From: Acaryochloris thomasi RCC1774
GTDB taxonomy: Bacteria > Cyanobacteriota > Cyanobacteriia > Thermosynechococcales > Thermosynechococcaceae
Assembly (NCBI RefSeq): GCF_003231495.1
Contig: NZ_PQWO01000026.1
Coordinates: 20,987-52,986 of the forward strand
Direction of reading: 5' to 3'
Length of the DNA: 32,000 nucleotides
Under the pieces are notes generated by a model, which was given only the letters and a program-made list of their open reading frames with translations, did no database searches and was not told the origin of the DNA. This document shows, in pieces, positions 559-24,895 of the stretch. The translations under genes and the position numbers were made by a program. Position 1 is the stretch's first letter, and each line of letters begins with the position of its first letter.

Positions 559-1710
559 ATGAGTCAAATTAATCATCTCAATACCCATCTCAAGCTCGTC
601 AGAAAGTCCCGGCCCCCAATGCAAAAGAGCCGGAAGAGTAGTAAGGTGGAGCGCTTCTTACAGCTACAGATTGACCAGCTTGTCAGTCAACCTCAGATTA
701 AGTGGGCAAGAGTGGTCTGCGAAGATCCGTCATCGATCCACCATCAACTCGTGGCTCATGCCTCCCAGATCCCCTTCCAGATGTCTCGGGCGACCCTCGC
801 AACCATCCGAACTGAGGACTGGTTGACAGAGGTTTCTTCTCATTTGGGTTTAAATCCTGTTGCTGGACTGACGACCGGATTCTACTATTGCTCTCTTAAC
901 GATCAGAAACCGCAGTATTTGCTGCTCTTTATAGACGGATCTCCTTCTCATCTCTTGCGCCAGTGGATTAAGCGTACTTCTGAAGTTCTAGAGGAGTCTC
1001 TAGAGAGCTATCAACAGGCCGCAAAACAATCGCGCAAGATTGAATTGTTGGAAGAAGTTGTGCAGCGCGTGGGGCATCAACTCAGGCATCCGTTGAGCCT
1101 CATAAACCTGTATGCCAACAATCTAGCGGTGGTTCTACCTCAAGGGCCAGAGCAGGAGCAGGTCACTGTTATCAATCAAACTGCGCAAAGTCTCAACCAA
1201 ATGCTGACGGAGATTATGCAGTGCGCCAAAAATGACAAGCTGCAGCTCATTTCTCAAGATTTGCGAAGTCTAATGCAAGAGACGCTAGCAGATTTCCGAG
1301 GTTGGATTCAAGAGAAAGGAATTCGAGTCCGTTTACCTGAGCGCACGGTTAATCTGCCTCTTGATCCACTCCAGATTAAGCAGGCTTTCAATAATTTAAT
1401 CAGTAACGCCATTCACTTTAGCCCCGAAAACAGTGAGCTTTTGATCAACTGGGAGATGGCTCAGGGGAATGTACGGCTGAGTATTTCGGATGAGGGTCCA
1501 GGATTGCCGCAAGACGATCTAGATAATCTGTTTAAACCGTTTTTTACCCGTCGAGAAGGAGGAACAGGCCTGGGTCTAGCCATTGTCCAGAAAGTTGTCC
1601 GTGCTCACGGGGGCAAACTGTGGGCCAAGAATGTAGCCGGTCGCGGCGCAGAATTTTCAATGAGTTTACCCCGTCTATCTGCAAATCTATCCGAGGATAT
1701 CGCATGTTAA
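559..1710 (+). CDS. Sensor histidine kinase: soluble, uncharacterised N-terminal region plus HisKA and HATPase_c
   Basis: 383-aa ORF. H-box [13 protein letters not shown]-box [13 protein letters not shown]1 DEGPGLP, F-box FKPFFT, G2 [10 protein letters not shown]. No TM helix is evident. GAGG lies upstream of the ATG. Confidence 0.9.
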
Positions 1711-2393
1711 ATCAAGCCGAAAAAACCAAGACTCTCTCTGCTGTATTGGTGGATGACGACCATCAGTTTCGAGCAGGTATCCGCTCTCTTCTCAATTTCT
1801 ATACTGTTCAAGATCAGTCCATTTCGGTTGTGGGAGAAGCCAATCGCCCCGATCTAGCCCTCTCTTTAGTGGGCGATAAGCAGCCTGACTTTGTTCTAAT
1901 TGATATGGAGCTAATTGGAGGAGATGGTCTCTCCTTGCTTCAGCAGATCCAGGACAGTGGTTCATCCTGTAAGACGCTTGTTCTGTCGGGCCACGAGGAA
2001 GATAGCTGGATTTACCAAGCCATGCAAACGGGCGCAGATGGCTATGTGTTCAAAAGCCAGGTAACCCAGCAGCTTCAAGATGCGATCGCATCCATCATGG
2101 ATGACCAAATCTATCTCCCCCCTGAAGTCGCCACAGGTTTCTTCCGCCGCTTTCAGACCACCCAAGCCTCTCTACCTAGTCAAATCGGTCAACCCTGCGA
2201 CCTGTCTGAGCGAGAAAATGAGGTTTTGTATTGGCTGGTGCAGGGCGCTTCAAATGTGGTTATTGCCAAAGAACTCTATATTTCTGTGGCCACGGTTAAA
2301 GCACATCTCACTAATATCTTTCTGAAGCTGCAGGTGACAAGCCGTACCCAAGCGATTGTGGCCGCCATCAAGATGAATCTAGTTCAGTCGTAG
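1704..2393 (+). CDS. NarL/FixJ-type response regulator (REC plus LuxR-type HTH)
   Basis: Receiver motifs [14 protein letters not shown] and KTLVLSGH. C-terminal Lux[45 protein letters not shown] prefer ATG 1704, which overlaps the kinase stop as ATGTTAA, over the track start at 1620. Confidence 0.9.
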
Positions 2394-2407: not shown

Positions 2408-4498
2408 ATGTCGATTGTTGATCCTCTCACTCAAGCCTATCGATGTACCCAAAACACACCGCTGGGCTGCAAAAAACCGAGAGAGACCATTAAAGAGATC
2501 CCCGGTGCCAAGTTCTGTCTAGAATGTGGTTTTCCAACGCCGCTGCCTGCTCAGTCAGAAATACGGGGCCGTTTGGGAACCTATCGCATCTCCAACCTGC
2601 TCCGATCTCAAGGGCTGGGGCGACTCTATAAAGCGATTCAGATCAGTAATGGTCAACCCGTAGTCGTGAAGGAATTTTTGCTGCCTAACCGCTGTTTTAA
2701 TTCTGCTGAGGCAGCTCAGCGGCGGTCAGTCGTACGTCAAATGCCATTCAATACGTCCAAGAGTCGCGAGTTTCGGGTAATCACACCCGTCGAAGCTATT
2801 GCGGATCCGAGTTGCGATCGCATCCACCTCATCTTCCCCAACTCAACAGCATCCACCTCCACACTCAAGCAAACGCTACAAAAATCAGGAGCCTTTCCCT
2901 CTGACAAAACTCGCCAAGTGCTATTACAGGTTTTGCAAACCCTACACTTTATCCATAATCAGTCCACTGCTGGCGCGAAGCCTTTCGGCGCAGCCCACGG
3001 TAACTTGAGCCTCAATAGTCTCCTTATCAGCGATGATGCCTATGTCTACACTTGTGACTTAGCAGACTGGGAACAACTTTTTACGACGGCTTCGCCCCAG
3101 GCATCGTCACCTGCACAGGATTTAATCGATCTCGGATTGATAGGCTTCTCCCTATGGACGGGACAGGCAATAGAGTCTGGCGCATTGCCCAATCTCAGAG
3201 AGACCCAACATTGGCCCCAGGATGATCCACCCCTCAAAGACTTTCTGCACCGCTTACTTGCCTTAGATGCACCTTTTGAGAATGCGGCCGAAGCGCGGCA
3301 GATGTTACTCAAACTCCCACAACCTGATTCAGCAAGGATTGTGCAAGCGAATCGAGAGCCAGAAAAAAAGCGTAAAAAGCGTTCTCGAAAATATTGGTTG
3401 TTGAGTTTGCTAGCCTTACCCATTTTGGGAGGATTACTGTGGCTAATCTTGCCTCGCTCTAGCTCCCATGCTGAGTCCAATCAGTTTAAGCGTCTGCTGC
3501 CCTCGTTTGCCGATGTGAATGGGATTCAGCCCGGACAGTATCCCTACACAGGGGAAGCACTGGGAACCTGGAGTACAGTTTTGGGGAAAAAGCCGGTCAG
3601 CGATCGCAACATCAGAACTTTGCTCACTCAACCTAAATCAGATGTTGAAGCAACGTTTGAGTATCGTGGGTATCGTCCTGAGCGGTCGCCACTGAATGAG
3701 GTGCTGACAGCGAATGGGAAAGCTGAGTTTGCGATCGCAAGTCTATCCACTCAACTTCCCGACGGCTTACTTCAGGAACCCATCGCCTACGATGGTCTTT
3801 TGGTCTACGTCCCTGCCTACAAAAGCAAAAATCTACCGCATCTCCTGAACGGTCAGATTAGCCTTGAGCAACTACAGCAAATTTTCACCGGGCAGATCAC
3901 CAACTGGCAACAGCTCGATTCTGGTTTGCCGGACCTACCCATTAAGCCCTATCGCCCCAAAGAACCTGAAGCCCTGCGTCTATTTCAACAGAAAGTCTTA
4001 GAGAATGATCCACAACTGATTGCCCAGTTTAGAAAAGTTGAGCAACGGTCCACCTTTGATACCCTGCGCTCCATTGCGACAGGGGAACAGCAGAGCGAAG
4101 CAGGCTCTATTAGTTTCGGCCTCTTGACCCAGACCTGGGACCAATGCAAAGTCTATCCTCTAGCCTTGAGCCAGAACAATAAAACACCAGTGCAGCCTTT
4201 GCTGCGGCAAACGACCAGTGGGATCGTGAAGTCGATCTCACCCACAGACAATCTTTGCCTAGAAAAAAAGCCGCTTCCCAACCTATCGGTCTTTCAATCC
4301 GGACAATATCCGCTCAACATGCCCCTGATCGTGGCCTATCCCCTTGACAACAATCTTCCTGGGCATAACTCAGGTCCACTCTTTGCTAAATTTCTCAAAA
4401 CGCAAGATGGGCAGTATCTCCTCCAGCAAGCAGGGCTAGTCCCCCTCCAGTCCACGCCCAAAACGCATCAATTATCACAGCCTATTGTCAATCGCTAG
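2408..4498 (+). CDS. Multidomain membrane protein: N-terminal zinc ribbon, degenerate Ser/Thr-kinase-like (pseudokinase) domain, one TM helix, C-terminal PstS-like periplasmic binding domain
   Basis: 696-aa ORF. C-x7-C-x15-C-x2-C near the N-terminus. Kinase-like GLGRLY and VVVKEF, but HGN (codons at 2996-3004) where HRD is expected and DLA where DFG is expected. KKRKKRSRK is followed by hydrophobic YWLLSLLALPILGGLLWLILP. C-terminal ISLEQLQQIFTGQITNWQQL resembles the PstS/PBP-like signature. Confidence 0.8.
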   Translation: MSIVDPLTQAYRCTQNTPLGCKKPRETIKEIPGAKFCLECGFPTPLPAQSEIRGRLGTYRISNLLRSQGLGRLYKAIQISNGQPVVVKEFLLPNRCFNSAEAAQRRSVVRQMPFNTSKSREFRVITPVEAIADPSCDRIHLIFPNSTASTSTLKQTLQKSGAFPSDKTRQVLLQVLQTLHFIHNQSTAGAKPFGAAHGNLSLNSLLISDDAYVYTCDLADWEQLFTTASPQASSPAQDLIDLGLIGFSLWTGQAIESGALPNLRETQHWPQDDPPLKDFLHRLLALDAPFENAAEARQMLLKLPQPDSARIVQANREPEKKRKKRSRKYWLLSLLALPILGGLLWLILPRSSSHAESNQFKRLLPSFADVNGIQPGQYPYTGEALGTWSTVLGKKPVSDRNIRTLLTQPKSDVEATFEYRGYRPERSPLNEVLTANGKAEFAIASLSTQLPDGLLQEPIAYDGLLVYVPAYKSKNLPHLLNGQISLEQLQQIFTGQITNWQQLDSGLPDLPIKPYRPKEPEALRLFQQKVLENDPQLIAQFRKVEQRSTFDTLRSIATGEQQSEAGSISFGLLTQTWDQCKVYPLALSQNNKTPVQPLLRQTTSGIVKSISPTDNLCLEKKPLPNLSVFQSGQYPLNMPLIVAYPLDNNLPGHNSGPLFAKFLKTQDGQYLLQQAGLVPLQSTPKTHQLSQPIVNR

Positions 4499-4511
4499 GA
4501 AGAATATCATC

Positions 4512-5054
4512 ATGGGAACCCATCGCTGTCCCGAGCCAAGTTGCTCCTTTTTTAATCAGGTACTACCCCACAATGCCAAAGTCTGCCCCATGTGTGGCAC
4601 CCCCCTCGGGCAGGCTGTCCAAACCCTACCAGAAACAAGAAATTCCTACCCTCAGCCCTTTTCTTTACCGACCCAATCGGCTGACATACCAGTCGATCAG
4701 CCTCGCCCGCAAATACAGCTACACCATGCCAGTGGAGCAAGCTTTGTGCTGATTAGAGAATCGGGCATCATCGGTCGACAGAACTCAACAAGTGGGACTC
4801 GTCCCGAGATTGATTTAACCAATGTTCCCCATGCAGGGGTCATCTCTCGCACCCATGCTCACCTCTTTTGGGATGCAGGACAAAGCACCTACATGGTGAT
4901 TGATGACAGTCGTAACGGCAGCTACCTCAATGGAGAACTCCTTTCTCGGGGTGCACCTCATCCCATTCATCAGGGAGATGAACTGCAGTTAGGTCAAGAT
5001 CGACTGATTTGCCTTCAGATCGAACTGAAGCAACCAGCAAATCAGTTTGCGTAG
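4512..5054 (+). CDS. Zinc-ribbon plus FHA domain protein
   Basis: C-x4-C-x13-C-x2-C (HRCPEPSC...VCPMCG) at the N-terminus. C-terminal FHA signature GRQN...IDL...VSRTHAHLFW...YMVIDDSRNGSYLNGELL. I prefer ATG 4512, preceded by AGGAAG, over the TTG at 4485. Confidence 0.85.
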   Translation: MGTHRCPEPSCSFFNQVLPHNAKVCPMCGTPLGQAVQTLPETRNSYPQPFSLPTQSADIPVDQPRPQIQLHHASGASFVLIRESGIIGRQNSTSGTRPEIDLTNVPHAGVISRTHAHLFWDAGQSTYMVIDDSRNGSYLNGELLSRGAPHPIHQGDELQLGQDRLICLQIELKQPANQFA

Positions 5055-5378
5055 CGTCTTAGTTTACCAACGGTCAAAAAATTGGTCCAACATCTAGGTC
5101 ATTGGGCAAATACCTCCAAATAGTGAAGGAATTTCTACGACAATAATGAACACCTCAATAAAGCGGGCTTTCGCAATGACGAAGGTCCAAACATCAAACA
5201 CAACCAGGGTATTGAGTAAAATATTTTCTTCGGTACTACACGAGTTACCAGCAATGATCACAACAGGATATGCCGATCAGCTGCATCTATGAAAAGAATG
5301 CTTACACCGAGAATTTAAATCCTCACTCCTTAGTTGAACACGACTAAGGCTCATAAGTTTCTACCCAGGAATGATCTT

Positions 5379-6314
5379 ATGTATTCAGAATCAAGACAAG
5401 CACCAGCAAGACAAGACTCACGACGACAATCACCACGACTAGTAGAAAAAAGAGGGCGAGATAGCAGTGAGGATAATGATACCCAGAGAAATCTAAGATC
5501 TAGACATAATAGGAATTTACTTGCAGGAATAACTCAAGTTCACCCAAGCCCCGACGAAGAAGTCAATAACTGCCATGAAAGATCTAATTATTATCGTGAG
5601 AATGTCAGTACTGTTGAAAGAGACGGGGAAGAAATAGAAATATATGATCTGAATACCATTAGCAAGAAAAAGTATGATCAAGCATCTAAAGGAGCACGCG
5701 TTACCAAAGAGACGGGACACACGAGCATTGCTCTTCAAAAGGGTGAAAAGCGAAAAGACTGGGTGATCAATGAGTCAGTCCTTGAATGGAACTCAATTCA
5801 AAAAAGGTTCGTAGCAAAAAGAAATTTCAAATTACCAGTAAGCTGTATTGAATCTACAGAACATATTATTAATTACGCAGACGAACAAAAAATTGAAGAC
5901 TGGGACAAGGATGATAAAAACAAAAAAGTCAATCTTTATTTGGGGTCAAATAAGCATGGCGATAAAAATCGTAAAGCCTTTAGCATAAGTGAAAATAATA
6001 TAAGCACAGAAAACCTGCCTAAACAGCCTAAAAGCTATAACTTCGACACCTCAAACTTAAATATAAATGAAGGACTTATGGTTTTTAATCCTGATGAACC
6101 AGAAAGCTCAATTCACGCTGTTGCAGTCGTAGGCATAAACTCTGTAAACAAACACATTATTGTTGTCGAGCGAAATGCTGGATACACCTCGGGTGGAGCA
6201 AATTTTGTTGATAATAATTGGCTAATAAATTCTTATGATTCACCTAACGCGTTTAAGCTAGATGTATCTGGTGATGACAAAGAACTAGTCATTGGTAAGC
6301 TAAAAGCTGGATGA
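5379..6314 (+). CDS. Hypothetical protein (ORFan): Arg/Ser/Asp-rich disordered N-terminus and a possible papain-like Cys/His/Asn C-terminal domain
   Basis: Long ORF in an AT-rich stretch; the track start is TTG 5334. ATG 5379 is preceded by AGGA. Lys/Asn-rich translation. Motifs are VSCIES (Cys codon 5844-5846) and IHAVAVVGI...IIVVERNAG (His codon 6114-6116). Confidence 0.6.
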   Translation: MYSESRQAPARQDSRRQSPRLVEKRGRDSSEDNDTQRNLRSRHNRNLLAGITQVHPSPDEEVNNCHERSNYYRENVSTVERDGEEIEIYDLNTISKKKYDQASKGARVTKETGHTSIALQKGEKRKDWVINESVLEWNSIQKRFVAKRNFKLPVSCIESTEHIINYADEQKIEDWDKDDKNKKVNLYLGSNKHGDKNRKAFSISENNISTENLPKQPKSYNFDTSNLNINEGLMVFNPDEPESSIHAVAVVGINSVNKHIIVVERNAGYTSGGANFVDNNWLINSYDSPNAFKLDVSGDDKELVIGKLKAG

Positions 6315-6543
6315 GACAGAGATAAAAGTAAATAATTTCATTGAAACACGTACTGACCAGCGTAAGCTTTACACGAACTTCTGCATCAACCTAAAGCTTT
6401 AACTCTTGATTTTTCTTGTAAAATAACGCCTAATTTAATCAGTTTTTTTAACAAGCGTACTTCAATCCTCTTTTAGATAGGGAGTCAACAGCTATAGAAT
6501 ATAGATTTTAATATTAAATATCTGGATCGCCATCAAGTTTGCA

Positions 6544-7440
6544 TCAATCAAATAATCGATTAAAGAATGCTCCCCAGCCTGAGGAGCTTTTTTGTCCAGG
6601 TTTAGACATCGCTTCTAAGTCAGCTTTTGACGACTCCTGTCCCTCTTTTGCTGCCGCTAGATCAGTGGCATATCTGTCCGCAATACTCGATCCTGTATAT
6701 TTTGCTTCGTACACCCTGTATTTTCCAAATTCACGGTAGCCAATCTCATCCACTCCTCCCTCATCAGTTTGATCAATCCATGCACTTTCATTAGCGGCTT
6801 TTCCAAGGAAAAGGAGATCGATGGAACCAATAGGAGAGTCAACCCAATAGTGACTGGTGAAGACCCAATGCTTTCCACCATCGACGTTCCCTGTGGCATT
6901 GTTTTGATCCAAAACTTTCCCGCCTCCAGGGACAAAAAAGTCTTTCGTCTTAGAACAGACCTCTAAATTCTCAATACCAAAGTACTCGTGGGCAATTTTG
7001 ACATAGGCTCTTGCCAGCGTACTGCAGTCTCCATCTTTTCTTCCCTTAAGAAAAGCCTCGGGTGCGGTAGCAGCCATACTGTAAGTAAATCCAGATTTGA
7101 GAAATGCCTCCTTTAATGCCTGCAGGCTTTTTTGCGGATCGGTTTCATTGATCTGTTCCACCATCTTGGCTGCGACTGGATAGTCTTGTAAGAATTTTTC
7201 TCTTTCAGCGCTTGTATCAGGCTCCACTAAATCCGATGCTGAGGTGCCTCGTTTAGGAGGATAAGCGGAGACCTTGCTCAGTACATTGCTAGTTCCAGCA
7301 TCACCCTGTCTACTGGGTCGTGACGTTTCTTGGGTCGTTCTTCGTGATGTTACGCCATCTGCACTGCGCCCTCGCTCTGGCGTTGGTGCTTGTCGTCGTA
7401 GACGATCAGAGGAAGAGTCTGAAGATTGTCGCTGGAACAT
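6544..7440 (-). CDS. Hypothetical protein: Arg/Ser/Thr-rich disordered N-terminus and a possible transglutaminase-like Cys/His/Asp core
   Basis: 298-aa ORF convergent with the previous gene. GDCSTLARAYVKIAHEYFGIEN (Cys codon 7024-7026) resembles the G-x-C-x-x-[FL]-A...GI motif of the transglutaminase-like core. It is followed about 58 aa later by HYWVDSPIGSIDLLF (His codon 6850-6852). Confidence 0.65.
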   Translation of the reverse strand: MFQRQSSDSSSDRLRRQAPTPERGRSADGVTSRRTTQETSRPSRQGDAGTSNVLSKVSAYPPKRGTSASDLVEPDTSAEREKFLQDYPVAAKMVEQINETDPQKSLQALKEAFLKSGFTYSMAATAPEAFLKGRKDGDCSTLARAYVKIAHEYFGIENLEVCSKTKDFFVPGGGKVLDQNNATGNVDGGKHWVFTSHYWVDSPIGSIDLLFLGKAANESAWIDQTDEGGVDEIGYREFGKYRVYEAKYTGSSIADRYATDLAAAKEGQESSKADLEAMSKPGQKSSSGWGAFFNRLFD

Positions 7441-7590
7441 GCAAAACCTTGTACTAAGAAGAAAATAGGAAACAATGAATCAAGCCGAGTCTATCTAAAC
7501 CGACACAGAGAAGCAGATGTATTTAGTAATGAGAACGGGAAGCACTGTTTCTGCAATTAAGGCCGATGTCTCGCTCTATGCTCCTGCTCA

Positions 7591-7785
7591 TTATCTCGAG
7601 CCGACAAAAGACATGAGGGGCTGATGGCGAGTTTCTGCCGCTTGCCGTGCAATTCTCACTGCAGACTGATAGTGAGAGACGAGACAGATTAGTTCAGAAT
7701 CGGTCGGTTTTTCCTGTTCAGTTCGCAACTCTATGCCCTGGGAGGTTTGATAAATCGCAAAAGGCTTAGCTGTGGGGATAGCCAT
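7591..7785 (-). CDS. Hypothetical small protein (64 aa)
   Basis: This is the only ORF over 60 codons in the 560-bp gap upstream of the baseplate operon. The composition looks native. No recognisable motif and no clear RBS. Confidence 0.25.
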   Translation of the reverse strand: MAIPTAKPFAIYQTSQGIELRTEQEKPTDSELICLVSHYQSAVRIARQAAETRHQPLMSFVGSR

Positions 7786-8002
7786 ACTGCCTGAGTTAAG
7801 TACATCAAACTGGACTCTACAGCTTTCCTTAGAGAGTTCCTTGCTACCTTCGGATAGATTGGGTGACGCTATGCCGCCGAATTATCAATGAATCTACGTT
7901 TGTGGCCATATCATCCTTTGCGTACCTAGACTTTCGACTGATAGAGACTTACTGATTGCCAGATAGTCTGATTCTCATACCCGAATTCTGAGGGCAAAAA
8001 GT

Positions 8003-8425
8003 ATGGCATATCTCATAGGTGAGCAGCCACAAGAACATCTGGGGACAGGTCTAGCTTTTCCCTTACAGGTCAATGTGCAGGGCGGACTCCAGCTCAGCTC
8101 TGAGGCCCAGAAAGTCAAAGAGTCGATCTGGCTGATCTTGCGAACTGATCTAGGAGAGCGTCTGTATCGCCCTAACTTTGGCTGTCGGCTATCAGAATTG
8201 GCGTTCGCCCCCATGAATACCGATACGCTGCTGCGAATTCGAATCTATGTGCAAGAGGCACTACAAACCTGGGAGCCTCGGATTCTACTTGATGAGGTGC
8301 GCACAGATACCGACTCGATCAGGGGACGGGTCAATATCGTGATCAACTACCGTCTCAAGTCTCATCCTGATCCCTACAGTTTTGTCTATCCGTTCTATTT
8401 ACAGTCAGAGGTTGAGGAAGACTAA
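8003..8425 (+). CDS. GPW/gp25-family baseplate wedge protein
   Basis: 140 aa. LGTGLAFPL...ESIWLILRTDLGERLYRPNFGCRLSELAFAPMN is the classic gp25/GPW signature (G-x-G-x-x-FP ... GER...P.FG). Confidence 0.92.
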   Translation: MAYLIGEQPQEHLGTGLAFPLQVNVQGGLQLSSEAQKVKESIWLILRTDLGERLYRPNFGCRLSELAFAPMNTDTLLRIRIYVQEALQTWEPRILLDEVRTDTDSIRGRVNIVINYRLKSHPDPYSFVYPFYLQSEVEED

Positions 8426-10632
8426 TGGAATTTGATTTTCTACCCGAACTCCCCAGCTCTCGCCTTGATGACCGGAGCTTTGATGATTTAGTTGAAGAGT
8501 GCCTGCTCCGTATTCCCCGCTATTGCCCAGAATGGACCGATCATAATCTCAGTGATCCAGGAATCACACTGGTTGAGCTATTCTCTTGGCTTACCGATCA
8601 GATGCTGATGCGGTTTAACCAGGTACCGCGTAAAAACTATGTTGCGTTTCTAGAGCTATTGGGAATTCGTTTGCAGCCCCCGGCCTCGGCCCAGGCTCGC
8701 CTCACGTTTTATCTGAGTACGAATTTACTCGAAGACTACACAATTCCAATGGGAACCGAGGTCGCAACAGAGCGAACAGAAACCCAAGAGGCTATTAGCT
8801 TCAGCACGGACCGAGATTTGGTGATTGGTCAGCCGCAAATTAAGCATATTTTGTCAGCGGTGGGCGATTCTCTCCAGTCTTTAAACGACCATACGGGGGA
8901 GTGGCAACCTCAGCAGAGCAGTCTGGCATCCAATCATGAATTCATGGTGTTCCCACAGCAGCCGCAGCCCGGTCATAGCTTCTGCCTTGTCTTCGAGCCA
9001 GACGCACTATTGGAGGGAAATGTGCTGGCGATTCATTTCACTGGAACCCAAGGAACCCCAACGGGCATCGATCCCAATCATCCCCCCCGCCGTTGGGAAG
9101 CCTGGGATGGTGAGGCTTGGATAAATGTGCTACTTCAGGAGGCCGATGATACGACCAATGGCTTTAGCTTCAATGAGCATAAGGTCGAAGGCAGGCAGTC
9201 AGAACCCAGCGGAGAGGTGACGCTCCATTTGCCAGAGTGCTGGGCTGCTCAGAGCTTTGCGGCTTATCGAGGGCGGTGGCTACGCTGTATCTTGACTGAG
9301 CCGACGGCTCATCAGCCGGGATATTCACATCCGCCTCGAATCCGAACAATGGGTCTCCGGGCGATGGGTGGGTCGGTTCAGGCCAGCCAGAGTGTGAAGG
9401 TGCAGGATGAACCCTTGGGCGTTAGCAATGGGAAGCCGGGGCAGAGTTTTGAGATCCAGACGGCTCCGATTCTAGAGCGTCGAGTAGGAGAGCATTTACT
9501 TGTTTCCCCGCCGGGACAGCCCCCCGAGATCTGGGAAGAGGTGGAGGACTTTGCGGAGTCTGGACCACATGATCGCCACTATCTGATTAATTCATTGGAG
9601 GGCACGCTTCAACTGGGGCCGCTGATTCGCGAGCCTCAGTCCCTCAAGCGCCAAACTCAGGCTCGTGCCTACCTGCAGCAGGTTCTCCCCGAAGAAAGAG
9701 CGCCCGGTCAAGATCTCGATGCTCAAATGATGGAGCATCAATATGGCGAGATTCCGCCCCGAGGGGCCGAGCTGATGTTCTCTTATCGGACGGGGGGTGG
9801 TAAGCAGGGGAATGTGCAGGCACGGACGCTGAATTTTCTGAAGACCACCATTCCCTACGTGGCTCAGGTGACAAACCATGAGGCAGCGGTAAATGGGGCA
9901 GATGCTGAGTCCCTGAATCAGGCGGTTTTACGCGCTCCGCATTTGTTGCGATCGCATGATCGGGCCGTAACCGCAGCCGACTTTGAAGCCTTGACCTTAA
10001 AAGGAAGCGGGGGTGCGATCGCAAGATCAAAATGCTTACCGACATCAGCAAACCAACCGGCTGGCAGCGTTAGCATCTGTGTTATCCCCCAAGCCAATAC
10101 CGATCTGATTGATCGGGGGCAGGGCATCGCACCAGAGACCTTCAATCTCAATCCTGCGCTGCGGGAGCAGGTCATGCATTATTTAGACGAGAGACGGTTG
10201 CTCGGCGTGCAGCTCCAGCTCCAGCAGCCCAACTACGTGGGCGTTTCTGTACAGGCAGAGGTCACGTTGGAACCAGCCTATCAAAATCCGGTTGCCCAGG
10301 CTGAAATCCTGCACCAAATTCAAGTCGATCTGTATCGCTATCTCAATCCATTAACGGGTGGTCCCGAGAGGGACGGCTGGCCCTTCGGTCGCCCAGTTTA
10401 TCCCTCAGACATTATGGCTCTGCTCCAGCAGAGGATCGGTATTCAGTATCTAGGTGCCATTCTTTTATTCCCTATTCAGTACAACGGACAGACCTGGCAG
10501 CGGCAAACAACACCGGTTCCCTGTATTGATCCGGGTCCCCTGGGCTTGCTGTGTTCGTGGGCAGATATCCATGAGCGAACCGGACATAGCGTCAATGTCC
10601 TGACGCCCCAAGCTGTTGCCATGAGGGCTTGA
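8425..10632 (+). CDS. Baseplate J / gp6-like baseplate assembly protein (large, CIS-type)
   Basis: 735 aa. The start overlaps the gp25 stop (TAATG). N-terminal CPEWTDHNLSDPGITLVELFSWLTDQMLMRFNQVPRKNYVAFLELLGIRLQPPASAQARLTF matches the conserved N-terminus of baseplate-J-like proteins from phage-tail-like loci, as I recall it. Confidence 0.9.
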   Translation: MEFDFLPELPSSRLDDRSFDDLVEECLLRIPRYCPEWTDHNLSDPGITLVELFSWLTDQMLMRFNQVPRKNYVAFLELLGIRLQPPASAQARLTFYLSTNLLEDYTIPMGTEVATERTETQEAISFSTDRDLVIGQPQIKHILSAVGDSLQSLNDHTGEWQPQQSSLASNHEFMVFPQQPQPGHSFCLVFEPDALLEGNVLAIHFTGTQGTPTGIDPNHPPRRWEAWDGEAWINVLLQEADDTTNGFSFNEHKVEGRQSEPSGEVTLHLPECWAAQSFAAYRGRWLRCILTEPTAHQPGYSHPPRIRTMGLRAMGGSVQASQSVKVQDEPLGVSNGKPGQSFEIQTAPILERRVGEHLLVSPPGQPPEIWEEVEDFAESGPHDRHYLINSLEGTLQLGPLIREPQSLKRQTQARAYLQQVLPEERAPGQDLDAQMMEHQYGEIPPRGAELMFSYRTGGGKQGNVQARTLNFLKTTIPYVAQVTNHEAAVNGADAESLNQAVLRAPHLLRSHDRAVTAADFEALTLKGSGGAIARSKCLPTSANQPAGSVSICVIPQANTDLIDRGQGIAPETFNLNPALREQVMHYLDERRLLGVQLQLQQPNYVGVSVQAEVTLEPAYQNPVAQAEILHQIQVDLYRYLNPLTGGPERDGWPFGRPVYPSDIMALLQQRIGIQYLGAILLFPIQYNGQTWQRQTTPVPCIDPGPLGLLCSWADIHERTGHSVNVLTPQAVAMRA

Positions 10633-11726
10633 TGGTGTCAGCTCTAATGACGAAAGGTGTCAGCCTCCAGCTCACGCCTATGCAGATTCCTGACTCAATT
10701 GCTCAGTCGGGAAGTGATGTCGGGATTGAGAAAAATGCCGTATCACAATCAGAAATTGTGGTCCATCCGGGCGAACTTTGCCGGGTTGCTCTAGAGCTGA
10801 AAAACTGGGAATCGCAAGCCCAGCAGCTCACCCTAAAGCTGGATGGAACCTTTCCCTTAGAGTGGTGTAAAACGGAGGCAGAGCCACAAAGAATAGCCCC
10901 GTTGGAACAGGGATCAACTCACCTGGTAACGGTGGAAGTCCCGGCTAAGAAAAGCTGGTACACTGACCTTTGGTTTCGGGTGCCTCAAGCGTTTTTCGAA
11001 GACCAGGAGGTCTTGTCTACCCATTCTGTCCAGCATCTTGAACTAAATTTTCGGGGCTGTCTGTCCGTTTGCCCAACATCGGAGTCAGAGGCAACGCGAC
11101 GGTCTCCGACCGGCCTACGGCCATCGCCTATTGAGCAGTCCAGTTTTGAACTTTACGTTCGACCCCGAAGCACTTACACCACGTTTTTGCCCACGGTCTA
11201 TCAAGAAATTGACGTCATTCATCGGTTCGTCAAAATCTTCGAGGAAGCCTTCGATCCAGTGGTGAATAGCTTCTCCTCCATGTGGGCCAATCTAGATCCA
11301 TTAACGGCTCCGCAATCGCTGCTGCCGTTTTTAGCCCACTGGGTAGACTGGCCCCTTGATGCACAGCTTAGTTTGACCCAGCAGCGGCGACTGATTCGCC
11401 GAGCGGTAGAAATTTATCGGTCACGGGGTACCCGTAAAGGACTGCGATTTTATCTGCATTTATATACAGGATTGCCGCTCGACGAAGAGATGAGCCGGGA
11501 AGAAGACAAATCAATCAGCATCACCGAACCGTCTGGACAGGGTTGTTTACTAGGCGTGGCCCAGATGGGTGTGGATACGGTTTTAGGAGGTGGCAAAGCC
11601 TACCACTTTGAGGTTCGCTTACGCTGTGAACCAGATTATCCCATCGATGAGCAGCTTGTTCGGCGAATCATTGAACAGGAAAAACCAGCGTTTTGTACCT
11701 ACGACCTATGGATAGAACATCGCTAA
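10632..11726 (+). CDS. P2 gpI-like phage tail/baseplate protein with an N-terminal extension
   Basis: ATG 10632 overlaps the upstream stop (TGATG). The C-terminal half LPTVYQE...RFVKIFEEAFDPV...LDPLTAPQSLLPFLAHWVDWPLD...RRLIRRAVEIYRSRGTRKGLRFYLHLYTG matches the gpI-type tail-protein signature. The roughly 180-aa N-terminal extension is unassigned. Confidence 0.8.
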   Translation: MVSALMTKGVSLQLTPMQIPDSIAQSGSDVGIEKNAVSQSEIVVHPGELCRVALELKNWESQAQQLTLKLDGTFPLEWCKTEAEPQRIAPLEQGSTHLVTVEVPAKKSWYTDLWFRVPQAFFEDQEVLSTHSVQHLELNFRGCLSVCPTSESEATRRSPTGLRPSPIEQSSFELYVRPRSTYTTFLPTVYQEIDVIHRFVKIFEEAFDPVVNSFSSMWANLDPLTAPQSLLPFLAHWVDWPLDAQLSLTQQRRLIRRAVEIYRSRGTRKGLRFYLHLYTGLPLDEEMSREEDKSISITEPSGQGCLLGVAQMGVDTVLGGGKAYHFEVRLRCEPDYPIDEQLVRRIIEQEKPAFCTYDLWIEHR

Positions 11727-11930
11727 GCAAATTATGGTCTGTTTTATACAAAATCTAGAGTTCAGCGATGACGGTCGTATACACAGATTATGAAAAGACT
11801 TCAATGCACTTCCCCACCGTCTGCTGAGCGCTCACGTCGAAGCCTAGCTTCCCCAGTTCCGGGGGGCAGTGCAGTCATGCTGCCTATCAGAAAAATATAT
11901 ATACAGTAGCCACTTTAAGGAGAGATAGTC

Positions 11931-13100
11931 ATGGCCCATTCATTTCCGACACCTGCGATCGCAACCTTACAGCGCCAACAAGTCAAAGACGGCCTCCTCC
12001 TCAATGCCGAACGCTGGCAGCGTGCCCATGCCTACCATCGCCAGCGCCAAAACGTTCACTATCAGTCGCTCAATCAACCCGGCATCGTTTGCGGTTTAGG
12101 AGTTCATGCGATTCCAGCTCCAGAATCAGTTGCGGCAGAATATCGTGATTCTCGCTGGGTCAAGATTCAGCCCGGAATTGCGATCGATTTAGAAGGAAAT
12201 CTGATTATTGTGCCGCAGCCGCTGAATTTTCGGCTGGCCACCGAGGTCAAGGAGTCAGAGCCACTCACCGTATACCTGGTCGCCCAATACCGAGATCCCG
12301 ATCAGCTAGAGGATACGCCTGACCACGAAGTTGTCCAAGAGACCTTCAGGATTGATGAAAGAAGTCGTCCCCCCGGTCGGTTAGACGTGGAGCTGTGCCG
12401 CGTGTTGTTGCGAGAGCAGCAGTCTTCCATCTCAAAACCCAGCGACGTCTTTTTCCCTGGATACGGCGATATCGATCTGCGCTATCGCCATCAGGCTCAG
12501 GCCCGCCCCCAGGGCTTAGTTCGCATTGCAGAACTGCAGCACGGCAGTGCAGACTGTAGCCGCAATTTTTTTAATCTCACCTATTTATCGCGCTCCGTCG
12601 AAGATATTTATCCATCACTGAGAGGAGCAGAAACAGTGGATCAGGTCACTTGGGAAGACGATCTACAGCCCTATGAGCTGATCTACTTGACAGGACGCGA
12701 GAGCTTATCTCTGAATAGCCGTCAATGTTCAATGCTGTCTAGGTTTCTGGAGCAGGGAGGAACGTTACTGGTGGATGCCCCCAGTGACGCAAAAGAGCTG
12801 ATTCAATCGGTTCAGATCCTAGCTCAACAACTACAGACACCGTTGAAGTCATTGCAAGAATCCCGCCGTGACCACCCGCTACGAATGAAGCCGTTCCTGT
12901 TCTCTGCATTGCCGGTGGCAGATCAAACTAGGATTCAGCTTTTATCAGGTGGAGGGATTATTCTCTCCATTGGCAACTTAGCCGGACTGTGGGGGTTAGA
13001 TGAGGGATTGTTGCGATCTCGAGATGAAATAAGAACGGCCCAGGAATTAGGGGTCAATATATTACACTTTGCGTGGAAACGCAGGCAAATGTTTGCTTGA
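11931..13100 (+). CDS. Hypothetical protein, last gene of the baseplate operon; C-terminal DUF4159-like domain
   Basis: 389-aa ORF with AAGGAG upstream. YELIYLTGRESLSLNSRQCSMLSRFLEQGGTLLVDAPSD ... DHPLRMKPFLF ... AQELGVNILHFAWKRR follows the DUF4159 pattern as I remember it (P.lymtG..f.ls..e...Lr.yl..GGfl..D ... HP ... GvNi..YA). The N-terminal 200 aa are unassigned. Confidence 0.7.
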   Translation: MAHSFPTPAIATLQRQQVKDGLLLNAERWQRAHAYHRQRQNVHYQSLNQPGIVCGLGVHAIPAPESVAAEYRDSRWVKIQPGIAIDLEGNLIIVPQPLNFRLATEVKESEPLTVYLVAQYRDPDQLEDTPDHEVVQETFRIDERSRPPGRLDVELCRVLLREQQSSISKPSDVFFPGYGDIDLRYRHQAQARPQGLVRIAELQHGSADCSRNFFNLTYLSRSVEDIYPSLRGAETVDQVTWEDDLQPYELIYLTGRESLSLNSRQCSMLSRFLEQGGTLLVDAPSDAKELIQSVQILAQQLQTPLKSLQESRRDHPLRMKPFLFSALPVADQTRIQLLSGGGIILSIGNLAGLWGLDEGLLRSRDEIRTAQELGVNILHFAWKRRQMFA

Positions 13101-17315: not shown

Positions 17316-18632
17316 ATGAAAGGGGCAATTGTTGCTGCACTCACGCTTCCCTGTTTAATCGCGACAGGGACGACAGCCTATAGCCAAGTGCCAGGAGAAG
17401 CTGGCCTGAGGCTAGAAACAGACGAGATTACCACCACATTTCAGGGGTATCTAGCCCAGTTTGGGGGAGACTGTCCCGGTAGCGAATGGTCTGGACCTGC
17501 GGCCAGCGACGATATTCGGTTCATTTCTTTTTTGACGCCGCCTGCTGAGAGCCGGAAAGTTCAGCTAACGAGCCTAACGACAGGCGAAAGTCTGGAGAAG
17601 GCGTACGAACAGGAAAGTAAAGGATCGTCAGATTTCTCATTACAAAAGCTCGGAGAGACTGACGGCATCCACGAGATTGAATATCTAATCTTTGATAAAG
17701 ATACGGAGAGCGTTCTTGAAGAAGGTTCATTTACCTACACCATAACCACATCGCAGACCGTTCTTTACGATTCTGGTCAATGGCCGGAAAGCCACTATTG
17801 CCATGATGTAGCCAGCAGCTATACCCACTTTGGGGCTATCGGTTTTGGCGGTATAGGCCTTTACTATTGGCCTTACCTCGGAGGCCATCACGGCAGGCGG
17901 CTGCAGCACAGGCACTATCTGAAACACAAGCATTTTCTAAAAGGTAAACATCTAAAAGAAAAGCAGCACTTTAAATCTCACTTCAAGCAGCACGAACATC
18001 TGCCTCACAAACCTATGCAGGCGAAAAAGCGAGGAGACGCCCACAAAGCGCTGCCGTCAAAGATGAAGTCGCAGCAGGTCCATTCTCCTCACTCAAAAAG
18101 GAAAGCGCTGCCGCAGCAGCCCGCAAAACCGCGTCCTCAAAAGAAAGCTGTAGAAGTAAAGCAATCAGAGGTTGTCAAGCCGCGGCCAAAGACTACCCAA
18201 CAAAGGCAGAGACAGCCCTCACGCACGCAGGCTCCACCGCCAATCAGGCCAACAGAGAGGCAGAAGCGAGAGATAATTGTCCCTCGCAAGACTGAGCAGA
18301 GAAACAAACTCTCACCGCAGCGGATCAAGCCGAATCAAAAAGCGGCACCTATCAAAAAGCGGAAGGTCGTTAGGACAAGTCCTCGAAAAGCAATCAAGAC
18401 AAAAACGGTAAAGAAGAAGCAAACGCCTCTTCAACAGCGCAGAAGTCGTCTCCAAAGAAGGCGTGGGGTTAGGCCGCCGAGTCGAACCTCAACCCCTTCC
18501 CGGCAGTACGGGCAGCGAAGGGCGATTTATCAAGCAGCACCCAGACAAATACAGCGACGGAGCAGAAGAAGGGCTAAGCCTCAGTCCAAGAGACAAGCGA
18601 ACAGGCGAACTCGAAGGCCGATCCAAAGATGA
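17316..18632 (+). CDS. Secreted protein: signal peptide, globular domain of about 190 aa, and a long His/Lys then Lys/Arg/Gln/Pro-rich polybasic tail
   Basis: 438-aa uninterrupted ORF. N-terminal MKGAIVAALTLPCLIATGTTAYSQ looks like a Sec signal. The tail begins at HHGRRLQHRHYLKHKHFLKGKHLKEKQHFKSHFKQHEH and runs to the C-terminus (…RRSRRRAKPQSKRQANRRTRRPIQR). Confidence 0.7.
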   Translation: MKGAIVAALTLPCLIATGTTAYSQVPGEAGLRLETDEITTTFQGYLAQFGGDCPGSEWSGPAASDDIRFISFLTPPAESRKVQLTSLTTGESLEKAYEQESKGSSDFSLQKLGETDGIHEIEYLIFDKDTESVLEEGSFTYTITTSQTVLYDSGQWPESHYCHDVASSYTHFGAIGFGGIGLYYWPYLGGHHGRRLQHRHYLKHKHFLKGKHLKEKQHFKSHFKQHEHLPHKPMQAKKRGDAHKALPSKMKSQQVHSPHSKRKALPQQPAKPRPQKKAVEVKQSEVVKPRPKTTQQRQRQPSRTQAPPPIRPTERQKREIIVPRKTEQRNKLSPQRIKPNQKAAPIKKRKVVRTSPRKAIKTKTVKKKQTPLQQRRSRLQRRRGVRPPSRTSTPSRQYGQRRAIYQAAPRQIQRRSRRRAKPQSKRQANRRTRRPIQR

Positions 18633-23266: not shown

Positions 23267-24895
23267 TTAGAGGCGCTTGAGGTTGTCAGCCTGCTTTGTG
23301 AATTTATCTGTGAAGATGCTCATGATCGTTCGCTTACGAACTTTGATATTTACATTGACTGACATGCCAGACTGCAGCGGCAGGTTAAGGTCATTCTTGG
23401 TAAGCCTTTGTTCTTCTAAATCAATCGTCGCGGGAAAACTATAGAATTGGCGCACTTCTGTCGGGGGCAGTGCATCGGACCCTATTGAGGTGAGTGTTCC
23501 TTTGACATCACCAAATTCACTGAAAGGGAAGGAGTCAATGCGAACATCGACCTTAAGTTCTCCTTTTTTTTCAAAATTTTGTTTCACAAAGCCAATCTCT
23601 TGATTGGTAATGAAAACCTTGGCTTGTAGATTATCTGCAGGCACAATCTTTAAAATTGGCTCGCTAGCGTTGACCACAAAACCACTGGTGTTGGGTTTGA
23701 GGTCAAATACGACACCATCGACGGGTGCTCTTAGCTCTTGGTATTTCATCGTCACCTGTGCTTGGTTCAGGCGGTTGTCGATTTCAGCGATTTGACGTTT
23801 ATTATCTTCAATTTGTTTGTCGTCTGCGATCGCTTCTTTGCTTAACTGGCTATCAATTCCCGCAATACTTTGCCGATTGGCTGCCATACGGTCTTGAATG
23901 GTTCGTTTGTCAGTGGCACCTTGGTTGCGCCCTTCCGCCCGTGTCTGAGCTGTGCGTTCTAGGATTTGACTTTTTTCTTTTCGTAACCGAATCTCTTCTT
24001 TCTGGAGGCGGGCGACTTCAGCTAGCCCTGTTTGCACCTCGTTTAACTGGTTTTTGTACTGGATTTTCGCAATTCCACCTTTTTCAAAAACCTCTTTGAT
24101 ATCATTAGCTGTTTCTTGATTAAGCTTTAGGGTTTCCTTGCTGCTCTCTAGCTGAATTTGGTTCTGCTCAAGTTCAATATTTTTGGCTGCCAACTCTTCA
24201 CTGAGCTGGGCTAAGCGTGCGGACAAACTGGCTTCATTCGATGATTTCTGTGCCAGACCAGATTGCAAGCGCGCCAACTCTTCTGCTGAAAAATTAGAGC
24301 TGGTTGCTTCGCCACTGAGCTGGGCTCTCAGAAGCCGATTCTCTTCAATGAGAGCTTGACGATCCTGTGTTTTAGAGCGTCGGGAGGATAAGTTTCCGAT
24401 CTGTTCACTACCGCTTCCCAGGGTTGGATTAGCATAAAGCTGATTTTGTCGTACTAAGTTGGCCCGAATGCGCCGTAGCGAAGCTAATTCCGAACTTGTG
24501 GCCTCAGGATCTAAACTAAGCAAGAGCTGGCCTTTTTTGACCCGTTCACCATCCTTGACGTGAATTTCGCTGACGACACCAGAGACAGGGGGCTGAATTT
24601 CTTTGACGGCTCCCAGAGGTTCTAATTGACCTGTTGCTGGGATCGCTTCTTCAAGTTTTAGGACGAACGCGAGCAAAATAGCGATAGCGGTGCCGCTGAT
24701 AATGGTCCAAATGATAATGCGTGACCACAGCGGTGACTGCTTGAGCACGACTGGACGATCGAATTGCGTAACGGCGCGATTCCGCTCTGCTGGCATCGGG
24801 AGCTGCCCGTTCCCGTTTTGGCTGATGCTTTTGCCATTGTTGTGACCGTTCGTCTGAGGAGACGTTTGGCGCCCATTCGCAGAAATATTTGTCAT
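23267..24895 (-). CDS. HlyD-family membrane fusion / type I secretion adaptor protein
   Basis: 542 aa. N-terminal TM (WSRIIIWTIISGTAIAILLAFVL), a long coiled-coil middle, and C-terminal beta-barrel motifs (LRAPVDGVVFDL, GMSVNVNIKV). The start overlaps the ABC stop (ATGA). Confidence 0.9.
   Translation of the reverse strand: MTNISANGRQTSPQTNGHNNGKSISQNGNGQLPMPAERNRAVTQFDRPVVLKQSPLWSRIIIWTIISGTAIAILLAFVLKLEEAIPATGQLEPLGAVKEIQPPVSGVVSEIHVKDGERVKKGQLLLSLDPEATSSELASLRRIRANLVRQNQLYANPTLGSGSEQIGNLSSRRSKTQDRQALIEENRLLRAQLSGEATSSNFSAEELARLQSGLAQKSSNEASLSARLAQLSEELAAKNIELEQNQIQLESSKETLKLNQETANDIKEVFEKGGIAKIQYKNQLNEVQTGLAEVARLQKEEIRLRKEKSQILERTAQTRAEGRNQGATDKRTIQDRMAANRQSIAGIDSQLSKEAIADDKQIEDNKRQIAEIDNRLNQAQVTMKYQELRAPVDGVVFDLKPNTSGFVVNASEPILKIVPADNLQAKVFITNQEIGFVKQNFEKKGELKVDVRIDSFPFSEFGDVKGTLTSIGSDALPPTEVRQFYSFPATIDLEEQRLTKNDLNLPLQSGMSVNVNIKVRKRTIMSIFTDKFTKQADNLKRL

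Follow-up and report, generated by a model that had tools for sequence, protein, structure and literature searches.

Two adjacent genes of the cyanobacterium Acaryochloris thomasi RCC1774 as candidate payloads of a contractile injection system

We analysed a 32,000-nucleotide stretch of the Acaryochloris thomasi RCC1774 genome (RefSeq assembly GCF_003231495.1, contig NZ_PQWO01000026.1, positions 20,987–52,986 of the forward strand; hereafter the window), which carries the baseplate genes of a contractile injection system (CIS) and, to their left, two convergent genes that we refer to as A (311 aa, plus strand) and B (298 aa, minus strand). A and B probably encode payloads of this CIS, that is, toxins or effectors, and each would combine a system-specific disordered leader with a folded thiol-enzyme domain. 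With good confidence we also regard the interval 5055–8002, bounded by an FHA gene and a gp25 gene, as the payload slot of the system. The observations behind this proposal are the gene order of the locus and its synteny among relatives, the variable content of the slot, a motif common to the leaders of its proteins, fusions of both payload domains to DUF4157, and invariant residues of catalytic type. A preliminary description of the window had already suggested cargo or toxin candidates with N-terminal loading leaders; this suggestion is supported by the slot synteny, by the leader motif found across different cargo and by the DUF4157 fusions, and not by the short RQAP string to which that description had pointed.

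A scan of species genomes with the J-like baseplate protein (Table 1) returned 474 relatives, and 78 of the best 80 loci bear cyanobacterial titles; individual loci are denoted below by L numbers and individual proteins by P numbers. The closest loci, with J proteins at least 72% identical to that of the window, form group 1, and a second lineage has J proteins ~58–62% identical. The order of histidine kinase, response regulator with a GerE domain, PBP-like pseudokinase and FHA genes, followed by the slot and then by the gp25, J, I and Cis13/DUF4159 genes, recurs in L001, L004/L029, L013/L016, L015, L017, L018, L020–L023, L025 and L026. Within group 1 the flanks of the slot are conserved, and its content of 1–3 kb changes from genome to genome. 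Homologues of B sit between the FHA and gp25 genes on three independent long contigs (L001, L004 and L013), and L015 is without B. Besides B-like proteins, the slot may hold a BMT5-like methyltransferase (6e-23), a DUF4765 protein (2e-11), an OTT_1508-type deaminase (1.8e-5, slightly short of the Pfam cut-off), divergent transglutaminase-like proteins or uncharacterised proteins. Two positions can be distinguished within it, one after the FHA gene on the same strand, taken by A in the window, and one on the opposite strand, taken by B; both are occupied in the window and in L016. Because the slot content differs between close relatives, its products appear to be exchangeable effectors.

The slot is also distinct in base composition, with a GC content under the locus average in every case (0.42 against 0.49 for the slot of the window). 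The AT-rich block reported earlier was recovered, with a GC content of 0.36–0.41 over 5001–6500 compared with 0.49 for the whole window, 0.37 in gene A and 0.32 in the spacer between A and B (6315–6543). Transposase-like genes are found in the slots of L022 and L023 and upstream of gp25 in L027 (Nostoc; judged from translations only), and those in the slot fit a recombination hot spot. A scan of 5000–8100 for promoters and terminators gave no excess over shuffled sequences.

Several smaller elements of the slot were observed in relatives. In L018, L019, L024 and L029 the cargo genes encode different proteins, yet the 40 nt before their ATG are nearly identical (tagaaacagaaa.ctcaatcactaatacatcgaggatatt, then ATG), which points to an exchange of cassettes behind a promoter and ribosome-binding region that stays the same. 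Slots of the Nostoc type (L018, L020, L021, L023, L025, L026 and L029) contain, between the FHA and cargo genes, a conserved 67-aa open reading frame (ORF; MKIMESIGYFF...RYKITDIAESKIRE...) that has no family match and is duplicated in L018 (7177–7380 and 7718–7921). In L017, from a metagenome-assembled genome (MAG) of the Acaryochloridaceae, a 132-aa ORF without a family match (8705–9103, plus strand) lies directly downstream of a 323-aa slot cargo; it could encode an immunity protein, implying a bacterial or self target for that payload.

Arg and Ser abound in the N-termini of A and B, where hydrophobic residues are few (Ser 19% and Thr 10% in the B leader). In the AlphaFold models the predicted local distance difference test score (pLDDT) is below 50 for residues 1–64 of A (25–29) and for residues 1–55 and 61–74 of B, with confident cores behind. 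From the extent of these low-scoring segments we set the leaders at ~65 aa in A and ~75 aa in B, so that the polar, disordered N-termini of the preliminary description stand, at less than the 80–100 aa then given. In the NCBI model of B (P0001, 227 aa) the start codon is placed ~71 codons after the ATG at 7440, so that the leader is missing; we favour the long form because the leader is conserved in the homologues of L001 and L024.

RQAP, which had been described as shared by the two leaders in a similar context, is present in both. It was rejected as a common signal because 18% of composition-preserving shuffles also yield a 4-mer common to both (P = 0.18) and Smith-Waterman alignment of the A leader with the B leader shows no significant similarity (z = 1.1).

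A different motif was identified among the slot proteins, nearly all of which start with 45–75 residues rich in Arg, Ser, Gln and Lys. We took ten slot proteins that differ in their C-terminal domains and searched their N-terminal 90 residues de novo for a motif with one site per sequence (OOPS), using shuffle controls. This search returned the motif N-[LIV]-L-x-x-h-x-x-x-P at residues 41–61 in seven of the ten sequences, with a looser match in an eighth. The motif score was 141.4, compared with 128.2 ± 2.6 in the shuffled sets, and none of 1000 shuffles reached the observed value. Examples are NLLAGITQVH (A), NVLSKVSAYP (B), NLLEGCRLFP, SLLEGVTCYP, NILLTASPGP, NLLERLSPAP and NLLSSTSAYP. In leave-one-out scoring the motif was significant for B (P = 0.0045) and for three other proteins; A, whose site was found de novo at residue 46 with the proline shifted by one residue, failed this test (P = 0.6). 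Where the preliminary description had advised looking for a conserved RQAP-type motif among neighbouring leaders, the recurrent element was N-[LIV]-L...P, located ~40–60 residues from the start.

Pairwise comparisons connect the leaders of the window with those of unrelated cargo. The A leader and the leader of the L021 deaminase have the exact 8-mer KRGRDSSE in common (0/1000 shuffles) and are similar in Smith-Waterman alignment (z = 3.5, P = 0.006). The B leader is similar to the leaders of non-B cargo in L024 (z = 6.0) and of the DUF4765 protein in L016 (z = 4.2). Searching each leader with phmmer against 3,191 ORFs from all loci recovered only the leader of the L001 B homologue (3.6e-4 with the B leader), this method being too insensitive for low-complexity leaders. 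A 14-column hidden Markov model (HMM) made from B-family leaders ranked the non-B slot protein of L024 first of 3,179 ORFs (16.3 bits); most other cargo leaders scored at background level, and the model was replaced by the de novo motif search. Since each leader of the window matches leaders on unrelated cargo in other genomes, the leaders are, as judged by sequence comparison, modular elements attached to unrelated enzymes.

Fusion proteins provide a further connection to extracellular CISs (eCISs). DUF4157 is an eCIS-specific marker located N-terminal to toxin domains (PMC8213781), and it is likewise the mark of the putative effectors in the CIS of Anabaena (PMC8894136). The B domain is C-terminal to DUF4157 (PF13699, also named eCIS_core) in P0014 (2.4e-33), and the A domain is fused to it in P0019; of the 10 long A representatives scanned, 7 have an N-terminal eCIS_core. 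One A homologue (L009) adjoins an AAA ATPase gene and a CIS tape-measure gene. The second lineage has fuller clusters, with genes for a tube protein, a ~1000-aa protein, a further tube protein, a VgrG-like spike (577–588 aa, assigned by similarity to a Pfam-annotated gene in L006) and PAAR-like, gp25, J, I and Cis13-like proteins. There, B-like genes (385–433 aa, 31–38% identity) lie 0.3–5 kb downstream of the Cis13-like gene in 14 further loci. These B-like proteins carry another type of leader, LT[IV]..GD.YEQEAD.VA..V (that is, ...LTIGQSGDRYEQEAD.VA..V), and the same type precedes the A-like domain of P0024, which is encoded beside a CIS cluster and a gene that also carries eCIS_core. Co-localisation of homologues with gp25, J and I genes, which the preliminary description had named as a check, was thus found for B in the slot on three contigs and for B-like proteins in the second lineage, and A homologues lie beside CIS genes in two of three contexts.

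These data also bear on the possibility that A and B are horizontally acquired passengers, either stand-alone toxins or selfish elements, which entered an AT-rich recombination hot spot and are functionally unlinked to the CIS. The low GC content of the slot, the transposases in and near it and the single A homologue without a CIS neighbour would all be compatible with such an origin. We nevertheless consider it unlikely, because both domains recur beside CIS genes in two CIS lineages at different positions and both are fused to the eCIS-specific DUF4157. Moreover, slot proteins with unrelated domains have a leader motif in common, which is not expected of a random landing pad.

Under the payload reading, the regions behind the leaders should be effector domains. 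The preliminary description had treated A and B as ORFans, each with its own set of Cys and His residues after the leader. The former does not hold, as a search of a 5.8-billion-protein set yielded 17 B homologues and A has homologues in 63 cluster representatives; the latter does, the two sets being invariant within their families. In the B family, C139, H197 and D208 are invariant across the 17 sequences. The pLDDT of the B model is mostly 87–98 over residues 81–280 (block means; 68 for the block 71–80), and in this model C139 is located at the N-terminus of helix 139–153, H197 on strand 197–202 and D208 on the adjacent strand 205–208. A distant, divergent transglutaminase-like relative in the L025 slot (E = 4e-4) retains these Cys, His and Asp residues.

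The position of C139 at a helix N-terminus, with H197 and D208 on the following strands, led us to read B as transglutaminase-like or papain-like. The top Foldseek matches all belong to that fold group (transglutaminase, TG2, PNGase, arylamine N-acetyltransferases and menin), although none is significant (E ≥ 0.14), the best being the transglutaminase 4xz7_B (E = 0.14, TM-score 0.23). Pfam Transglut_core was detected in 2 of the 17 members at a sub-threshold E value of 0.24; B itself has no Pfam or NCBIfam match, and the family profile has no sequence match in the PDB. Unlike established transglutaminase-like and papain-like enzymes, B therefore lacks significant sequence or structure similarity to known members, and in view of the Foldseek scores we do not file it in a named family. 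We describe B as a candidate Cys-His-Asp thiol enzyme, which on its model may be a protease, deamidase, transglutaminase or acyltransferase.

In the A family, C156 and H246 are invariant in 41 aligned sequences, as are E111, G113, R265, A267 and G268. The domain is found at the C-terminal end in nearly all representatives with sufficient coverage to judge. Pfam, NCBIfam, a PDB sequence search with family profiles and Foldseek against the PDB gave no assignment. The AlphaFold model is moderately confident (pLDDT 64); in it C156 directly precedes a helix and H246 opens a strand, an arrangement that resembles that of the Cys and His residues in B. Modelling both proteins, as had been advised, thus predicted disordered leaders and a confident B core, and yielded no significant fold match for either.

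Twelve of 27 cargo-like proteins were found to carry lipidation signals of eukaryotic type. Seven have a Cys at position −4, five of them fitting strict CaaX (CCQVM, CCTVM, CCNLM, CTIL, CCLLM, CSIM and CTIM are the seven C-termini). Two begin with MGxxxS and a polybasic run (MGNCMSSREKKK and MGNEESSLKRKK), their ATG being preceded by GAGGA, and three have a GAP-43-like N-terminal CC with a polybasic run (MTDFLCCSRRRKK). Under a strict combined definition such signals occur in 10 of 27 cargo-like proteins and 7 of 983 background ORFs (Fisher 5e-13), counts that are inflated by shared B-family ancestry. Among the bearers are P0007, P0009, P0011, P0013, P0015 and P0016 and the products of L015:8294–8887, L018:8303–9067, L019:647–1300, L024:563–1507 and L029:8228–9241; A and B of the window have no motif of this kind. 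Signals of this type would be read only by the prenyl-, myristoyl- or palmitoyl-transferases of a host. As the motifs recur on unrelated domains, for example at the end of a 197-aa L015 protein (CTIM), they suggest that the payloads of these relatives have eukaryotic targets. Within the library of papers searched, none combines "contractile injection" with "prenylation".

The same motifs help in weighing whether A and B are accessory or regulatory CIS parts, acting as processing enzymes on particle proteins or as Ser/Thr-rich substrates through which the pseudokinase/FHA module gates assembly or firing. Such a role would account for the Ser/Thr-rich leaders and for the FHA and kinase-like membrane proteins that adjoin the slot in synteny throughout the lineage, and a function in maturation has been suggested for DUF4157 itself (PMC8213781). 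A part of this kind is expected to be conserved, yet the slot enzymes differ per genome (deaminase, methyltransferase, DUF4765), L015 does without B altogether, and the lipidation-type motifs of the relatives make sense only in a eukaryotic target cell; we judge this explanation improbable. Export of A and B as polymorphic toxins by another route, such as the Peptidase_C39/ABC/cNMP-binding exporter and HlyD protein encoded 16 kb away (23267–27873), is very unlikely, for although the leaders could in principle serve secretion, they are polar, disordered segments of 65–75 aa with no recognisable double-glycine cleavage motif in the inspected translations, in relatives the exporter shows no synteny with the slot, and the fusions seen in the long A representatives are to eCIS_core and not to trafficking domains of type I, V, VI or VII secretion systems (T1SS, T5SS, T6SS or T7SS).

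Several points weigh against the assignment of A and B as CIS payloads. No fold could be assigned to the A domain, whose model reaches only moderate confidence, and the fold proposed for B leans on non-significant Foldseek matches and the sub-threshold Transglut_core signal. Between the two leaders there is no significant similarity, and A fails the leave-one-out motif test. By Pfam, neither A nor B of the window contains DUF4157, and a Bacteroidota homologue of A (L011) has no CIS gene on its 13-kb contig. For A. thomasi itself, no sheath, tube or spike gene came to light in the 32 kb covered, and formation of the particle as well as loading and toxicity of A and B are predictions from the genes.

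The window contains no sheath, tube, spike, cap (Pvc16) or AAA+ ATPase gene. However, the record of a Cis15-like A. thomasi protein with WHD and AAA domains (P0097) gives a contig of 52,986 bp, equal in size to that of the window, and this protein is 68% identical to the one encoded beside the kinase gene in L017. In the nearest relative, L016 (J 86% identical), Pvc16_N, a 571-aa sheath, three gp19 tube proteins, a second Pvc16_N and an AAA ATPase are encoded ~12–18 kb upstream of the kinase gene, and ~10 kb of unrelated genes (TPS, CHAT, DUF928, kinase and NB-ARC) separate the ATPase gene from the kinase-to-baseplate block. The window begins inside an NB-ARC gene equivalent to the one in this relative. 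Given this gene order, the start of the window in the equivalent gene and the record of P0097, a split arrangement, in which the sheath, tube and ATPase block lies apart from the baseplate block, is likely in A. thomasi too. The baseplate operon, earlier called an orphan, is one within the window and probably not in the genome. An AAA ATPase gene directly to the left of the window, as in L001 and L017, was considered and rejected, since the left end encodes the divergent NB-ARC gene as in L016.

The features of the locus are listed in Table 1. The earlier reading of a four-gene phage-tail-like baseplate operon is correct, its genes having Pfam and NCBIfam matches, and both convergent genes were confirmed as ORFs. 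The distance of about 560 bp given between them and the operon also holds, B starting 562 bp from gp25; the stretch is not empty, as it contains a conserved 64-aa gene. This gene has orthologues with 70–91% identity at the equivalent position in L001 and L013 and was detected in L015, L016, L017, L019 and L024 as well. It has no family match, and its product may be a chaperone, an adaptor or a regulator.

Table 1. Features at the left end of the window and in the payload slot and baseplate operon (positions refer to the window).
Feature	Position	Strand	Evidence and remarks
NB-ARC gene N-terminus, divergent	1–90	−	NB-ARC / HTH_VMAP STAND NTPase; contains MNFEAVINNVNQAVLSHVGRALKPVERLVL; gene order as in nearest relative L016
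Histidine kinase, first gene of regulatory module upstream of slot	559–1710	+	HATPase_c 4e-27, HisKA
Response regulator with GerE/LuxR DNA-binding domain	1704–2393	+	Response_reg 6e-20, GerE 4e-19
Membrane protein with zinc-ribbon N-terminus, weak kinase-like region, one predicted transmembrane helix and C-terminal PBP-like domain	2408–4498	+	PBP_like_2 2e-10
FHA protein with N-terminal zinc ribbon; left border of slot	4485–5054	+	FHA 2.4e-13
Gene A leader, residues 1–64	5379–5570	+	Arg/Ser/Asn-rich, predicted disordered; contains KRGRDSSE and RNLLAGITQVHP
Gene A candidate payload domain	5571–6314	+	Uncharacterised family; invariant C156, H246
Gene B candidate payload domain, residues 75–298	6544–7218	−	Transglutaminase/papain-like candidate; invariant C139, H197, D208
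Gene B leader, residues 1–74	7219–7440	−	Ser/Arg/Thr-rich, predicted disordered; contains SNVLSKVSAYPP
64-aa gene, conserved, divergent from gp25, upstream of B	7591–7785	−	Orthologues at equivalent position
gp25-like baseplate wedge / sheath initiator (Cis9-like); right border of slot	8003–8425	+	GPW_gp25 1e-23
Baseplate J-like protein (Cis11-like)	8425–10632	+	TIGR02243 1.9e-181; Baseplate_J 5e-12
Tail protein I-like baseplate protein (Cis12-like)	10629–11726	+	tail_TIGR02242 1.9e-37; Tail_P2_I 3.7e-10
Cis13-like N-terminal (baseplate-binding) region with C-terminal DUF4159	11931–13100	+	CIS13_fam 1.7e-10 on residues 20–130 (below cut-off); DUF4159 1.7e-14

In both cyanobacterial CIS lineages the regulatory module to the left of the slot keeps its synteny with the baseplate operon. 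Its histidine kinase has syntenic orthologues with 53–82% identity in L001, L004, L013 and L015–L029, and its response regulator has orthologues with 73–94% identity at the equivalent position; GerE regulators adjoining eCIS loci have been reported (PMC8213781). The PBP-like membrane protein is syntenic in every group-1 locus. Its kinase-like region scores 21 bits with Pkinase (2.5e-4), against a Pfam cut-off of 31.7, and its predicted transmembrane helix spans residues 330–348 (Kyte-Doolittle maximum 2.31 at residue 330). The FHA protein is syntenic too, and its best NCBIfam match is the T6SS TagH FHA model (TIGR03354, 1.6e-10, 41 bits against a cut-off of 120).

Unrelated genes, among them hisA-like and SDR-like ones, are encoded in the other 19 kb of the window. 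The C39-type exporter belongs to an operon at 23267–28664 (minus strand) that encodes a 993-aa protein with cNMP-binding, Peptidase_C39 and ABC exporter regions and an HlyD-family protein, corresponding to a bacteriocin-type or type I export system. A 438-aa protein without a Pfam match is encoded at 17316–18632 (plus strand); it has a signal-peptide-like N-terminus and an extremely basic C-terminal half rich in Lys, Arg, Gln and Pro, and an AT skew of 0.49 was recorded within its gene at 18001–18500.

Taken together, the window would represent the baseplate and regulatory half of the A. thomasi CIS. By analogy with AlgoCIS and Photorhabdus virulence cassette (PVC) cargo, we infer that A and B are guided into the tube lumen by their leaders, probably via the Cis15-like AAA+ ATPase. 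Contraction of the particle would then deliver both proteins, and their putative thiol-enzyme domains would modify or cleave a protein of the target cell. The histidine kinase and GerE regulator pair, together with the membrane pseudokinase and FHA proteins, may control expression or assembly. More tentatively, we raise the possibility, which we would not yet favour, that this CIS lineage uses a transferable, system-specific address tag, namely the Arg/Ser-rich leader ending in N-[LIV]-L...P, which is shuffled onto many enzyme domains. Its payloads would be directed at the cells of eukaryotes, grazers or symbiotic hosts for instance, and the module of membrane pseudokinase, FHA protein, histidine kinase and GerE regulator would gate assembly or firing in a manner analogous to T6SS threonine phosphorylation.

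If the payload assignment is correct, two unnamed families of Cys/His enzymes join the catalogue of CIS effectors, and a payload slot with a candidate loading tag is defined for a CIS lineage that hundreds of cyanobacterial genomes carry, among them many Nostoc assemblies and that of a marine Acaryochloris. The natural domain swapping seen here, in which one payload domain follows several leaders and one leader precedes unrelated enzymes, would inform the design of leader-reporter fusions and the reprogramming of particles. The lipidation-type motifs of relatives would likewise offer a concrete, testable hint on the targets of cyanobacterial CISs.

Comparison with characterised systems places the locus in context. 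The regulatory module resembles the threonine-phosphorylation pathway of the T6SS (PpkA and Fha1/TagH) in that a membrane-spanning kinase-like protein with an extracytoplasmic domain and an FHA protein are encoded beside a contractile-machine locus. It differs from this pathway in that the FHA protein scores below the TagH cut-off and the weak or degenerate kinase domain gives no Hanks-type score above the Pkinase cut-off; in addition, the module of the window, known here from its genes, is joined with a histidine kinase and a GerE regulator. The thylakoid-anchored CIS (tCIS) of Anabaena sp. PCC 7120 (Cis11, Cis12 and Cis13, with the putative effectors Alr3311/Alr3312) is likewise a cyanobacterial CIS with baseplate genes of the gp25, J, I and Cis13 types and putative effectors nearby, and the Cis12-like and Cis13-like proteins of the window weakly match the CIS12_fam and CIS13_fam models of NCBIfam. 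Their scores are, however, far below the equivalog cut-offs (59 against 860 bits and 41 against 370 bits, respectively), and, unlike the putative effectors of the tCIS, A and B are without DUF4157. Where Cis13 of the tCIS has a C-terminal transmembrane helix, the Cis13-like protein of the window has no predicted one (Kyte-Doolittle maximum 1.48) and ends in DUF4159, so that thylakoid anchoring is not indicated here.

The closest parallels for A and B themselves are found among eCIS cargo. The Photorhabdus PVC payloads Pdp1 and Pnf also have a disordered N-terminal segment of tens of residues before an enzymatic toxin domain, contain no DUF4157 and are encoded next to the structural operon. The likeness is one of architecture; the host here is a cyanobacterium, and the predicted payload domains of A and B belong to unrelated, uncharacterised Cys/His families. 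For cargo of AlgoCIS, PVC and the metamorphosis-associated contractile structure (MAC), the disordered N-terminal region is required for loading and DUF4157 is dispensable, and cargo leaders are alike within systems and not between them (bioRxiv 10.64898/2026.05.27.728243). The AlgoCIS proteins Cgo1 and Cgo2 of Algoriphagus machipongonensis and the eCIS-associated toxins (EATs) of the DUF4157 type combine a disordered, system-specific N-terminus with a variable C-terminal effector and are encoded beside CIS structural genes. A and B differ from these in lacking DUF4157, in the sequence of their leaders (Arg/Ser-rich, with N-[LIV]-L...P), for which loading is a prediction, and in their location between a regulatory module and the baseplate operon instead of at the 3′ end beside the ATPase gene. 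Relatives of both A and B, in turn, carry DUF4157 between leader and domain, and the occurrence of one payload domain behind different, system-specific leaders agrees with the pattern established by experiment for eCIS cargo.

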